From Escherichia coli (GTDB taxonomy: Bacteria; Pseudomonadota; Gammaproteobacteria; Enterobacterales; Enterobacteriaceae), in assembly GCF_003334315.1 (NCBI RefSeq), contig NZ_QOWR01000003.1: a stretch of DNA of 64,000 nt; one strand, given 5' to 3'. Of this stretch, positions 51,030 through 53,490 are shown piece by piece. Positions within the stretch are counted from its first letter, which is position 1, and each line of letters opens with the position of its first letter. The notes beneath the pieces were generated by a model. The model saw only the letters and a program-made list of their open reading frames with translations. It had not been told where the DNA came from and did no database searches. The position numbers were made by a program, and so were the translations under genes.

Positions 51030-51707
51030 TTACACCAGTAATTCCGCAGCCAGCCGTGCAATCAATACGTTAGAGAGCAAGACAGGAACATCGAGCTGTT
51101 TTTGCAGTAAATCGCGATGACGCTGGTTAAATCCCAAACAATCCAGCATGATGACATCAGCCCCTTTTGCCAGTAATTCTTTCCCGGCATCAATGATTTT
51201 TTGTTCTGAATCATGAATGGGGTTACCCAATGAAAATACCGGCGGTTTCTGCAAAATTTGCCATTTTTGCGCCTGAACGGTCAGCAACTCCTCAACCGGT
51301 ACGATAACCCCTACCTGATGATCTTCAACAATAGAGGAAACCAGCGGTGGCAATATCCGCGACGGCTCAAGAAAGATCGTATTACGCGCAGTCATACTAC
51401 TAATGTTTGCCGTACTCATTAATATAATGACGTCGTAGCCCTGATTATCGAGCACTTCAACCACACCTTGCAGGTCACGCTCTACTTTGCGACGCGAAAC
51501 ATGGGCCAGATGGTTGTCATTTAATAATGTGAGAATTGTGTCTTCGCCTGCTTCTGGCGCGTACTCCGCCATCACTTCTTCGCGGCTTAACTTCCCCAGC
51601 AGGCTATGATGGGAAATATTATCTTCGTCAATGTATTCTGTCAGGAGCGGCAAAACTTCCTGCATAGGTACAATGCCGATGGTTAGAATCGCCAACGACG
51701 CACTCAT
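51030..51707 (-). CDS. aroM: Protein AroM (function unknown)
   Basis: 225-aa ORF downstream of aroL-yaiA. Confidence 0.93.
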
Positions 51708-51964
51708 TGTTCTTCCACCTTACTTTTATTTCGTCGTTAATTACCGGGCAAGTGTTAAGCACCACTGCTGACACTTACTTGTGCTACAAATGACAAAAAG
51801 CGTAGCAGCAGACGTGCACGGCATAATGTAAAGATTCCAAATGATTCCAGTAATGGATTGTTATTGTTTAATATTCTAATTATTTGAAAAACATGAATTA
51901 TGAAAAATGTGACGCAGATCCCTTGTAGTGGCACTCAGAATCCCTTCCGAGCAGTCTGATGCGG

Positions 51965-52165
<201 letters not shown>

Positions 52166-52205
52166 TTATTTCACGGGATGAACGTTAAGTATAGGCGCTC
52201 GAAAA

Positions 52206-52730
52206 TCAACAATTGATCGTCTGTGCCAGGGCGCTGCGAATTTCAGAAATCACCTGGCTGGGTTCGTTTGTTGCGTCGATGATAATATGCGCAACTTCGC
52301 GATATAGCGCATCGCGTTCTTCCAGCACTTCCTGAACTTCTTCGCTCAGCGGTTTTCCCGTTAAGGTTGGCCGTAAATCTTCTTCCGGTGCAGCTTGCAG
52401 TCGGTTAACCAGGACTGATACTGGCGCACACAAATAAACCACGATCCCGTTATTTTGCATGAAGTGACGATTAAATTCCGTCAGAATAATGCCGCCGCCT
52501 GTAGCGATAACGGTGGATGGCGCAGTTACCGCTTCCAGCGCCGCCGTTTCTCTGGCGCGAAATCCCGCCCACTCTTCCCTTTCGACGATCTCCGCGACCG
52601 TCATATTGAGCTGTGATTGCAACCACTGATCGGTATCGACAAACCGACGGTTAAGCGAATCGGCAAGGGCCATTCCGACCGTTGTTTTACCACAGCCCCG
52701 AGGCCCGATCAGAAAAAGAGGTTGTGTCAT
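52206..52730 (-). CDS. aroL: Shikimate kinase 2
   Basis: 174-aa ORF with Walker [10 protein letters not shown]. Confidence 0.97.
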
Positions 52731-52789
52731 CGTGGGTTTTCCCCAATAGGTCGCAATGCGGCGAAAGCCGGTGTCATGAGAATAGCGAT

Positions 52790-52809
52790 CATACCATCAA
52801 ACTAGTACA
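52790..52809 (-). promoter_or_regulatory. Probable TrpR operator in the aroL promoter
   Basis: Minus strand reads GTACTAGTTTGATGGTATGAT, containing the GTACTAGT trp-operator half-site overlapping a TATGAT -10-like hexamer. Confidence 0.4.
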
Positions 52810-52817
52810 ATTTCGAT

Positions 52818-52835
52818 TGTAAAGGAAAAATTCCA
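52818..52835 (-). promoter_or_regulatory. Possible TyrR box (weak)
   Basis: TGTAAA-GGAAAA-ATTCCA; one half-site matches the TGTAAA-N6-TTTACA consensus. Confidence 0.4.
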
Positions 52836-52893
52836 CTTAAAGTGAAAATCTCAATACACCCCTTACTATACCAATAAATATTCAAGAATGAAG

Positions 52894-52911
52894 TGTAAAT
52901 AATAAATTACA
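52894..52911 (-). promoter_or_regulatory. TyrR box (strong)
   Basis: TGTAAA-TAATAA-ATTACA, 11 of 12 match to TGTAAA-N6-TTTACA; overlaps the yaiI stop codon. Confidence 0.55.
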
Positions 52912-53371
52912 TTTGGCCGCGACTACGTTGCACTTCCAGCCACCATTTCTCCAGCTCCGCAGCAAAGGCCTGGCGGTCACGTTGTGAAAGACTATCTGGT
53001 CCGCCGGTCTGGATCCCACTGGCACGTAAGGTATCCATAAAATCGCGCATCGTCAGGCGCTCACGAATGGTCGCTGGCGTGTAACGTTCGCCGCGCGGAT
53101 TAATCGCCGCAGCGCCTTTCTCGATGGCTTCAGCAGCCAAAGGTATATCTGCGGTGATCACCAAATCGCCCGCTTCACACTGCCGGACAATTTCGTTATC
53201 GGCAACGTCGAAACCTGCCGCGACGCGCAGCGTACGAATAAATCGCGATGGCGGCACGCGTAAACTCTGGTTTGCTACCAGTACCAGCGGCATCTGCATA
53301 CGTTCCGCCGCGCGATACAAAATCTCTTTAATTACATTGGGACACGCGTCGGCATCCACCCAAATTGTCAT
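52907..53371 (-). CDS. yaiI: UPF0178-family protein YaiI (function unknown)
   Basis: 154-codon product [35 protein letters not shown]... from ATG (rc of 53369-53371); ORF track extension rejected. Confidence 0.88.
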
Positions 53372-53490
53372 AAAGTCATCCTTTGTTGGGTAATCCTCTA
53401 TTGTGTCGCGCTTTTGCCTTCCGGCATAGTTCTGTTTATGCTTCTGCCAGCGATTATCAAAACAATGAATTTCACGGCAGGAGTGAGGCA

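Follow-up and report, generated by a model that had tools for sequence, protein, structure and literature searches.

The conserved protein YaiI of Escherichia coli: a DUF188 family member and putative metal-dependent nuclease encoded between proC and aroL

The yaiI gene of Escherichia coli is wedged between proC and aroL, two genes of amino-acid biosynthesis, and this arrangement raises two questions, namely what the gene product does and whether its position between these neighbours carries any regulatory meaning. In the window, by which we mean the whole 64,000-nucleotide stretch of E. coli DNA analysed here, the coding sequence occupies 52907..53371 on the minus strand, and both its identity and its extent, as given in an earlier note on this DNA, are borne out by translation, by Pfam and NCBIfam matches and by the RefSeq annotation. 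Read from its ATG it comprises 154 codons for a single-domain protein of 154 amino acids and 17 kDa, which in this strain ends in RSRGQM*, and a Shine-Dalgarno sequence, AAGGA, can be read from the sequence 7 nt upstream of the start (53379..53383, minus strand). A longer, TTG-started frame of 194 amino acids was rejected as the yaiI gene, because the homologues in a 52-sequence alignment align from the M-x-I-W-V-D-A-D start. The locus is 100% identical to that of E. coli NZ_CP025859, RefSeq naming yaiI between aroL and proC, and the gene, a single-copy core gene, is carried by every one of the 5426 complete genomes of the species. Its protein has furthermore been detected in E. coli by proteomics (PMC11537011). 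We are thus dealing with a well-known core gene, already known and catalogued as a "y-gene", and the earlier claim that its function is unknown still stands in so far as no functional study of yaiI, yqxD or DUF188 was found in the literature searched to mid-2026, nor any nuclease activity, substrate or phenotype for any DUF188 member. The finding described in the following is real but ordinary, and it changes little.

As judged from sequence, YaiI is an unambiguous member of the DUF188/YaiI-YqxD family (PF02639, NF001095, COG1671), since it matches the Pfam DUF188 model with an E-value of 5.8e-49 over model positions 1-127 of 130 and the NCBIfam equivalog NF001095 with 230.1 bits, the cutoff being 139, over positions 1-149 of 150. 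The family, of which YaiI is the type member, is widespread in bacteria, with 3589 clusters at 50% identity (E<=0.001). A classification published in 2017 (Matelska et al., PMC5499597) assigned it to the PIN nuclease superfamily as an NYN-like branch nearest to NYN_YacP, with acidic residues conserved at five positions and a pair of basic helices at the C-terminus. In light of the Pfam and NCBIfam matches and of this published class, the notion that the protein has no motif assignable to a function is out of date. The alignment, the structural model and the fold searches described below accord with this class.

Conservation within the family was assessed in the alignment of 52 representatives, which are 41-75% identical to YaiI. 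No variation is seen among these at D6, D8, P11, A57, D58 and I61, and conservation reaches at least 90% at D55, D69, T73, D75, R93, G94, R109 and R116. Homologues from Listeria and Priestia, which are 28-33% identical, likewise keep the acidic set. On the minus strand of the window, codons 3-11 (IWVDADACP; 53339..53365) encode strand 1 followed by the invariant Asp6 and Asp8, a putative first metal-binding motif, and the invariant Pro11; codons 53-61 (GFDVADNEI; 53189..53215) hold the near-invariant Asp55 and the invariant Ala57, Asp58 and Ile61 around the start of a helix spanning residues 56-64; codons 69-79 (53135..53167) contain Asp69, strand 4 and then Thr73-x-Asp75, the T/S-x-D typical of PIN and NYN domains; and codons 99-152 (52916..53077) encode the C-terminal part, where two long helices (residues 99-117 and residues 130-152) with the conserved Arg109 and Arg116 putatively form a nucleic-acid-binding surface. 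The five or more conserved acidic positions after S1, S3 and S4 that are described for the family (PMC5499597) are accordingly found in YaiI, as are the features expected of NYN-like domains, that is, carboxylates at the C-terminal ends of strands (D6/D8 and D55/D58) and a T/S-x-D after S4 (T73-A-D75).

Many NYN and PIN-like domains are non-catalytic binders, and one may ask whether YaiI is likewise an inert protein that binds nucleic acid or the ribosome on a PIN-like scaffold. Such a function would agree with how common non-catalytic domains of this type are, with the conserved arginines on the C-terminal helices, and with the fact that no activity of YaiI is on record in the literature searched; PIN-like clusters with a degenerate active site do moreover exist (PMC5499597). 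It is however in poor agreement with the three invariant aspartates and the three further acidic or threonine positions that are conserved in at least 90%, including in Firmicutes at about 30% identity. Such conservation over thousands of clusters leads one to expect a live active site and not a relic, and while we therefore regard an inert binder as rather improbable, the existence of an active site in DUF188 is near-certain.

The structure prediction and fold comparison that the earlier note had suggested gave a confident AlphaFold2 model (pLDDT 96.4, pTM 0.89) in which five strands alternate with helices and a pair of long helices comes last, and the order of its elements, b1-a-b2-b3-a-b4-a-b5, with the first strand at residues 3-6 and the first helix at 12-25, fits an NYN-like core. 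The best annotated structural matches of this model are NYN domains and the Bacillus subtilis RNase Rae1/YacP, the latter being the top PDB match in Foldseek (5mq9_B, probability 0.97, E 7e-3) at a TM-score of only about 0.4. It should also be mentioned that the fold-search scores are modest and that in the PDB generic Rossmann folds reach comparable values; in the AlphaFold DB the NYN matches outrank those to HAD proteins. A PDB sequence search gave noise only when run with the YaiI protein and nothing when run with the 52-sequence profile, and no solved structure of the family was found by it. Likewise, aligning DUF188 to a shallow YacP alignment (>=67% identity) with hhalign, in local, global and low-MAC settings, gave a probability of 0.1 and a nonsensical alignment, and homology to a proven NYN nuclease was therefore not reproduced at the sequence level; the published fold assignment of DUF188 used deeper meta-profile methods (PMC5499597).

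Motif I (D-x-D) of HAD-like phosphatases and phosphotransferases is matched by the invariant D6-x-D8 pair that immediately follows strand 1, and if YaiI were such an enzyme, Asp6 would be its nucleophile, Asp8 its acid/base and a small phosphorylated metabolite its substrate, and the acidic D75 after strand 4 could act as motif IV. We consider this very unlikely, for although motif I is kept, other hallmarks of HAD phosphatases are missing: there is no motif II Ser/Thr after strand 2, position 34 being occupied by Asn in 90% or more of the 52 sequences, motif III is without a candidate in that no invariant or near-invariant Lys occurs in the same alignment, and in the model strand 1 runs straight to the helix at residue 12, leaving no squiggle/flap or cap. 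Furthermore, the invariant A57-D58-x-x-I61 has no HAD counterpart and fits instead the T-A-D-E-x-I of NYN/YacP, and neither Pfam nor NCBIfam returned a HAD match.

When compared by eye, Rae1/YacP (NYN_YacP, PF05991; PDB 5mq8/5mq9) and YaiI share an aspartate after strand 1, an A-D-x-x-I helix start and a T/S-x-D after strand 4, the GFDVADNEI segment of YaiI resembling T-A-D81-E-R-I of Rae1 and Thr73-x-Asp75 corresponding to T102-S-D104. The proteins are similar in size, with 170 amino acids in Rae1 and 154 in YaiI, and each finishes in a pair of long helices that carry conserved basic residues; the two basic C-terminal helices that characterize NYN_YacP are present in YaiI as helices 99-117 and 130-152 with R109 and R116. 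There are however clear differences as well, since the Rae1 family has an invariant D7-G8-Y9-N10 where the YaiI family has D6-A7-D8-A-C-P11 and thus no G-Y-N, since the position of Asp53 in Rae1 is taken by Asn34 in YaiI, and since YaiI has no Pfam match to PF05991. In addition, B. subtilis has both YqxD and Rae1, and the two are therefore not simple orthologous replacements of each other (PMC5499597). To the NYN domains in general (PF01936; LabA-like/COG1432) YaiI likewise has no sequence-level match, and whereas NYN proteins, most of which are themselves uncharacterised, are predicted to bind one metal via four acidic residues (PMC5499597), in DUF188 the conserved acidic positions number five or six, the D-x-D pair among them.

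On balance we think it likely, though by no means assured, that yaiI encodes a small cytoplasmic metal-dependent nuclease that probably acts on RNA, and that it is a stand-alone gene whose overlap with a regulatory box of aroL is incidental. In such an enzyme conserved carboxylates would cluster where the parallel strands end on their C-terminal side: Asp6 and Asp8 follow strand 1, Asp55 and Asp58 belong to the beginning of the helix that comes after strand 3, and strand 4 has Asp69 and Thr73-x-Asp75 about it. The cluster would hold Mg2+ or Mn2+ and prime a water molecule to hydrolyse the phosphodiester bond, and the Pro92-Arg93-Gly94 loop may together with the two long arginine-bearing C-terminal helices grip the nucleic acid. 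RNA appears more likely than DNA as the substrate, since the closest characterised structural match is the B. subtilis endoribonuclease Rae1/YacP, and besides that analogy the preference has behind it a single RNA-interactome capture of the Bacillus homologue, in which the RNA-binding proteome was found to include B. subtilis YqxD (PMC12456014).

For Rae1, endoribonuclease activity is proven and substrates are known, its action requiring stalled ribosomes (PMC12407103), and the analogy could be taken further to suggest that YaiI/YqxD is a translation-coupled or RNA-surveillance endoribonuclease, in other words a proteobacterial counterpart of the Rae1 of Firmicutes that cuts mRNA at stalled ribosomes. 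There are some hints to this effect in the top PDB match to Rae1, the basic C-terminal helices, the RNA capture of YqxD and the DEAD-box and tRNA-related neighbours described below, but a role this specific seems doubtful to us at present. If it were true, YaiI would be a candidate for the incompletely assigned nuclease activities of E. coli at paused ribosomes, and if YaiI is an RNase of any kind, it would be a new enzyme in the well-studied RNA-decay inventory of this organism. The practical outcome is a set of residues for mutation (D6, D8, D58 and D75) together with a confident model.

The genomic surroundings of yaiI were compared in 80 proteobacterial loci, and the order proC-yaiI-aroL was found to be limited to 16 enterobacterial ones. 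In the 64 non-enterobacterial loci no conserved yaiI neighbours were found, the immediate same-strand neighbours belonging to 43 different clusters, of which the 20 that we annotated are unrelated housekeeping genes (hemF, ttcA, ybaK, pdxH, ruvB and others). The tRNA-related genes ttcA and ybaK adjoin the yaiI homologue in some genomes, and a DEAD-box RNA helicase gene is found within 5 kb of it in 5 of the 80 loci and also in Enterococcus. Some homologues carry N-terminal fusions (GNAT, a TonB-receptor fragment), and these were set aside as sporadic or as gene-call artefacts.

In Listeria the homologue lies 7 nt upstream of the primase gene dnaG, as confirmed on a Listeria contig, and a yqxD-dnaG-sigA operon has been reported in Bacillus and Listeria (PMC5499597), a place in Firmicutes that suggests a link to core macromolecular synthesis. 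This linkage is also what speaks for the alternative that YaiI/YqxD is a replication-tied nuclease directed at DNA or at primers, for example at RNA primers or flaps, like the FEN branch of the PIN superfamily. The linkage to dnaG is however absent in Enterococcus and in all 80 proteobacterial loci, and the model contains neither a helix-3-turn-helix DNA-binding module nor the long helical arch of FEN enzymes. Since FEN matches furthermore rank below those to NYN domains and Rae1, and since YqxD was captured with RNA (PMC12456014), we find a function in replication unlikely.

The PIN-like fold and the small size of YaiI are also reminiscent of VapC toxins, which have the superfamily-level fold and the acidic active-site logic in common with it (PMC5499597), and a possible pairing of toxin-antitoxin type with a MocR regulator has been noted in the B. 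cereus group (PMC5499597). It is nevertheless hardly credible that YaiI acts as the toxin in a toxin-antitoxin pair of the VapC type or in a defence module. No conserved small partner is found up- or downstream in the 80 loci, the gene is not mobile and belongs, in single copy, to the core of all E. coli genomes, and VapC proteins are without the C-terminal two-helix extension. Searches of PADLOC and PHROGs with YaiI gave no match, and a role in defence or in phages was therefore rejected. Plasmid copies are mostly found on non-mobilizable replicons (123/155), many of them megabase-sized among the matches listed, and the "phage" matches examined, from a phage collection, turned out to be short, unverified contigs of host chromosome. 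The missing partner, the core-gene status and the lack of a PADLOC or PHROGs match effectively refute a toxin-antitoxin or defence function, and yaiI is instead a stand-alone housekeeping gene under purifying selection, outside any toxin-antitoxin, defence or amino-acid-biosynthesis module.

As to the position of the gene, the ATG of yaiI and that of the divergent proC (pyrroline-5-carboxylate reductase; 53491..54300, plus strand, from the ORF list and the RefSeq annotation) are exactly 119 bp apart (53372..53490), in agreement with the earlier note, and the spacing in K-12 is identical (405644/405764). A consensus promoter scan of this spacer located neither promoter, and its sequence is poorly conserved beyond Escherichia. 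On the other side aroL (shikimate kinase II; 52206..52730) follows on the same strand, 176 bp past the yaiI stop. A terminator scan of this 176-bp gap called no terminator, and the sole terminator-like element before aroL is a weak hairpin (UUUCAC / GUGGAA) followed by U5 at 52826..52848 on the minus strand, seen in both the MFE and the centroid folds 60-80 nt past the yaiI stop and left without a call by the scan; the fold z-score of the yaiI 3' region, -1.29, is not significant. An Rfam scan of 51500..54500 at E<=1 likewise found no RNA family. With no convincing intrinsic terminator in the gap, some read-through from yaiI into aroL is therefore physically possible.

The control region of aroL reaches into the end of yaiI, and as the earlier note had observed, the yaiI stop overlaps the distal TyrR box of aroL in this allele. 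The TAA (52907..52909) sits within TGTAAATAATAAATTACA (52894..52911), which as the distal box reads TGTAATTTATTATTTACA on the aroL strand and also covers the last sense codon of yaiI. The box has one mismatch to the consensus, keeps the G and C of the palindrome, 14 bp apart, and is the sole match to TGTAAA-N6-TTTACA with at most one mismatch in the 64-kb window, the expected number being 0.11. A proximal box with two mismatches adjoins the aroL -35 hexamer (52818..52835). Between the two boxes, a candidate for the middle TyrR box of the aroL literature, TGTATTGAGATTTTCACT on the aroL strand (52841..52858), can be read from the sequence; it is weak, with four mismatches, and falls below the threshold of our TyrR box search. 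Lawley and Pittard (1994, J Bacteriol 176:6921) reportedly showed that TyrR binds the distal box and acts on aroL transcription. A sigma-70 promoter scan furthermore placed the aroL promoter, TCGAAA-17-TATGAT, at 52788..52816 on the minus strand, and within its spacer there is a TrpR-operator-like match, GTACTAGT (52801..52808), which is presumably a TrpR site. The same promoter hexamers are given as the constitutive promoter of aroL-yaiA-aroM (PMC3946193), and when compared with the aroL region of K-12 the near-consensus TyrR boxes and this promoter are exactly alike.

The earlier note took the short divergent spacer and the overlapping stop to mean that yaiI expression and termination are entangled with both neighbours, and such coupling could consist in read-through or in TyrR at the distal box acting on the yaiI 3' end. 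Besides the overlap in this strain, it could draw on the terminator-poor gap and on the 119-bp spacer that proC and yaiI have in common. On the other hand, aroL has its own mapped promoter (PMC3946193) and yaiI is reported to be monocistronic (PMC5499597), the overlap is found in a minority of genomes and the stop of K-12 falls outside the box, and both the restriction of the gene order to the 16 enterobacterial loci and the poor conservation of the divergent spacer are hard to reconcile with coupling. Escherichia, Citrobacter and Superficieibacter have both the distal and the proximal box preserved ahead of aroL, the former about 76 bp upstream of the latter; weaker pairs with 2-3 mismatches are found there in Enterobacter and Klebsiella, and the two boxes are separated by 74-80 bp in 8 other genomes (Escherichia, Citrobacter, Superficieibacter, Enterobacter, Klebsiella and Pluralibacter). 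The distance from the yaiI stop to the box by contrast varies from -5 to >100 nt across genomes; other genera have their boxes 4 to >100 nt past the stop, or separated from it by a further gene. On this sequence comparison the TyrR boxes track aroL and not the end of yaiI, and we judge functional coupling to be a very small probability and the proposed entanglement to be unsupported. For the enterobacterial genera sampled we regard both the overlap with the aroL box and the placement of yaiI between proC and aroL as probably accidental products of local genome compaction, with no demonstrated regulatory meaning. Transcription of yaiI independent of aroL, which the earlier note named as an outcome that would count against its reading, is largely borne out, and functional annotation by homology, which it named as another, has been attained by half.

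The overlap itself can be traced to one polymorphic codon of yaiI. Codon 153 (52913..52915, minus strand) is CAA (Gln) here and TAA (stop) in the K-12 alignment, and YaiI is therefore 152 amino acids long in K-12, where the stop ends 1 nt short of the distal TyrR box. The CAA shifts the stop 6 nt downstream into the box, the sequence of the box itself being unchanged relative to K-12. By exact 60-mer matches among the 5426 complete E. coli genomes, the K-12 type is present in at least 3851 and that of this window in at least 976, and the stop-in-box overlap is thus allele-specific, a strain-level curiosity of a minority of E. coli genomes.

Contrary to the notion in the earlier note that YaiI has no motif assignable to a function, Pfam DUF188 (E 5.8e-49) and NCBIfam NF001095, "YaiI/YqxD family protein" (230 bits against a cutoff of 139), both have this protein as their type member. 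The family comprises 3589 clusters (50% identity, E<=0.001), and no functional study of YaiI/YqxD was found in the literature searched; a 2025 paper describes the function of yqxD, the Firmicutes homologue, as a blank and its translation as poor (PMC12576955). Among 52 full-length representatives with 41-75% identity to YaiI, residues D6, D8, P11, V50, A57, D58 and I61 are invariant (52/52), and at least 90% conservation is seen for I3, A7, A33, N34, G53, D55, D69, T73, D75, P77, L78, A79, R93, G94, L106, R109, R116, G119, G124 and F136. The acidic residues furthermore persist in a YqxD of Listeria, at 28% identity, and in a copy on a Priestia plasmid, at 33%. A working active site has this pattern of conservation. 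One representative, P0167 (383 aa), carries a GNAT acetyltransferase domain fused N-terminally to DUF188, and GNAT also occurs as a gene of its own ~1-1.5 kb upstream of yaiI (loci L010, L015, L017, L019), beside hemF in Serratia, Pectobacterium and Acerihabitans and further in Budvicia; this association may be coincidental.

The AlphaFold2 model of YaiI, with the 52-sequence alignment as input, is confident (pLDDT 96.4, pTM 0.89) and predicts five strands (3-6, 29-33, 45-49, 70-72, 88-90) interspersed with helices (12-25, 56-64, 76-84), then a pair of long helices (99-117, 130-152), such that every conserved carboxylate comes directly after strand 1, 3 or 4. No PDB chain is sequence-related to YaiI with either a protein or a profile query, and Foldseek with the model gave no PDB match below E 1e-3, the best being B. 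subtilis endoribonuclease Rae1/YacP (5mq9_B, probability 0.97, E 7e-3, TM ~0.4). The AlphaFold DB search was the more telling of three fold searches, and the nearest annotated relatives of the predicted fold are NYN/Rae1 proteins. When Rae1 (a sequence identical to 5mq8_A, with invariants from its family alignment) is aligned by eye, its motifs are collinear with those of YaiI, IWV-D6-AD pairing with LLV-D7-GYN, VA-N34 with VF-D53, VA-D58-NEI with TA-D81-ERI and IT-A-D75 with TS-D104. DUF188 has likewise been classified in the literature as a NYN-like PIN domain nearest NYN_YacP, on which acidic residues are conserved at five positions and the two C-terminal helices are basic (PMC5499597). The assignment has its weak points: the G-Y-N hallmark of Rae1/YacP is not found in YaiI, and profile-profile comparison of the DUF188 alignment with the YacP alignment, which is shallow (>=67% identity), failed to detect a relationship (probability 0.1).

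HAD phosphatases too have a D-x-D following strand 1 as their signature, and YaiI might on that account be one of these. Its position 34 is however Asn and not Ser/Thr, the 52-sequence alignment has no conserved Lys, the model is devoid of squiggle, flap and cap, and the invariant A-D-x-x-I has no counterpart in HAD, for which reasons we rank this explanation low. With moderate confidence we rather take YaiI to be, most likely, a stand-alone metal-dependent nuclease that has a NYN-like PIN fold and probably acts on RNA; that it is catalytic, that it uses a metal, the class of its substrate and any link to the ribosome are what we infer for it. On the current view, Rae1 cleaves mRNA at the trailing edge of a stalled ribosome, 12 nt upstream of the A-site codon (PMC12407103), and YqxD was in 2025 recovered in a sporulation-stage RNA-binding proteome (PMC12456014).

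The chromosomal neighbours in E. coli are uninformative on this role. When one genome per species was scanned, the best 80 loci, all from Proteobacteria, held the order proC-yaiI-aroL in only 16 enterobacterial cases (Escherichia, Citrobacter, Enterobacter, Klebsiella, Pantoea, Rosenbergiella and relatives); in Serratia, Pectobacterium and Acerihabitans yaiI comes after hemF, and elsewhere the neighbours change from one locus to the next (ttcA, ybaK, pdxH, panE, ruvB, a lactonase, an AraC regulator, sugE, a diguanylate cyclase and others). A toxin-antitoxin or defence role was rejected, since no conserved small partner gene occurs among the 80 loci, YaiI has no matches in PADLOC or PHROGs, and plasmid copies mostly reside on non-mobilizable replicons, many of them megabase-sized among the matches listed. 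Five of the 80 loci have a gene for a DEAD-box RNA helicase (RhlE-like) no more than 5 kb from the yaiI homologue, against a rough expectation of ~1-2. These are L043, L044, L050, L057 (two copies) and L074, with distances of ~1-5 kb, and in L043, L057 and L074 the two genes are directly adjacent. In Enterococcus the homologue adjoins ddl-murF-cshA, with cshA (L084:5580-7190) three genes downstream on contig L084, and such proximity may hint at an RNA-related role. Unlike in Enterococcus, yqxD is in Firmicutes reported as the first cistron of a yqxD-dnaG-sigA operon (PMC5499597, PMC12576955), and a Listeria contig confirmed the link to dnaG: its genes run glyQ-glyS-ppsR-like-yqxD-dnaG, and dnaG is preceded by a gap of 7 nt. 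Three records entered as "UNVERIFIED" phages, of Listeria, of Enterococcus or unnamed (L082, OR848443.1; L084, OR846667.1; L085, MT836691.1) contain glyQ-glyS-ppsR-like-yqxD-dnaG, ddl-murF-cshA, or trkH and a glycerate kinase gene, and look like fragments of bacterial chromosomes, not phage genomes.

In the window, which is E. coli chromosome in the orientation opposite to K-12, yaiI is a genuine gene (52907..53371, minus strand) of 154 codons with the protein end RSRGQM* and a Shine-Dalgarno AAGGA 7 nt upstream of its start, and YaiI peptides have been detected by proteomics (PMC11537011). A TTG-started 194-aa version in the ORF listing is not the gene, since homologues in the 52-sequence alignment begin at M-x-I-W-V-D-A-D, and the K-12 annotation agrees. 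Region 52700..53500 shows 100% identity to NZ_CP025859 and at least 95% in 5426/5426 complete E. coli genomes, and every matching one is annotated aroL, yaiI, proC. On the same strand yaiI is followed by aroL (52206..52730), yaiA and aroM, and dgcC lies beyond proC. The earlier note rightly gave 119 bp between the divergent starts of yaiI and proC (ATG at 53491), as in K-12 (405644/405764), and this spacer is little conserved outside Escherichia. It was equally right that the yaiI stop, TAA at 52907..52909, lies inside the distal TyrR box TGTAAATAATAAATTACA (52894..52911), the sole site in the 64-kb window with at most one mismatch to TGTAAA-N6-TTTACA (expected 0.11). These observations are correct, already known and of little surprise, and what interest YaiI retains it shares with every protein family that is widespread, uncharacterised and probably catalytic.

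The further claim that yaiI is entangled with aroL is not supported, as the overlap is allele-specific, the distance to the box varies by genus and aroL has its own promoter. Codon 153 (52913..52915) is CAA in the window and TAA in K-12, where YaiI is consequently 152 instead of 154 aa and the stop ends 1 nt before a distal box of the same sequence; the two extra residues, Gln-Met, fall outside the conserved domain. As exact 60-mers, the K-12 haplotype occurs in 3851/5426 genomes and that of the window in 976/5426. Elsewhere the box begins 1 nt (E. albertii), 4-7 nt (Citrobacter), 19 nt (Superficieibacter) or more than 100 nt (Enterobacter, Klebsiella) after the stop. From these differences it follows that the boxes belong to aroL with the end of yaiI merely nearby, and that the overlap is incidental. 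An opposite-strand ORF of ~240 aa, rich in Gln/Ser/Asn and unmatched in NCBIfam, even parts yaiI from the aroL operators in Pluralibacter, two Enterobacter species, Pantoea stewartii and Rosenbergiella (L005, L009, L012, L018, L024, L025).

The 176-bp yaiI-aroL gap holds no convincing terminator by terminator scan and folding, its fold being no more stable than those of shuffled sequences (z = -1.29). Its sole candidate, a weak hairpin with a 6-bp stem (UUUCAC-UUUAA-GUGGAA, then U5; 52826..52848, minus strand), could be a leaky yaiI terminator, which that z leaves without statistical support, and some read-through into aroL is possible; yaiI has been described as monocistronic (PMC5499597). 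The hairpin overlaps the proximal and a possible middle TyrR box on the yaiI/aroL strand.

The proximal box (52818..52835, 2 mismatches) adjoins the -35 element of aroL, and both boxes are presumably the TyrR operators of aroL described by Lawley and Pittard (1994), an identity supported by their conservation: upstream of aroL, Escherichia, Citrobacter and Superficieibacter have a distal and a proximal box separated by 74-80 bp, and Enterobacter, Klebsiella and Pluralibacter have weaker pairs with 2-3 mismatches. The promoter found by scan, TCGAAA-17-TATGAT (52816..52788, minus strand), is listed as that of aroL-yaiA-aroM among constitutive sigma-70 promoters (PMC3946193). Promoter and operators are independent of yaiI. 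The promoter spacer contains GTACTAGT (52801..52808, aroL strand), which is similar to a TrpR operator half-site. Such a site is consistent with the dual control of aroL by TyrR and TrpR.
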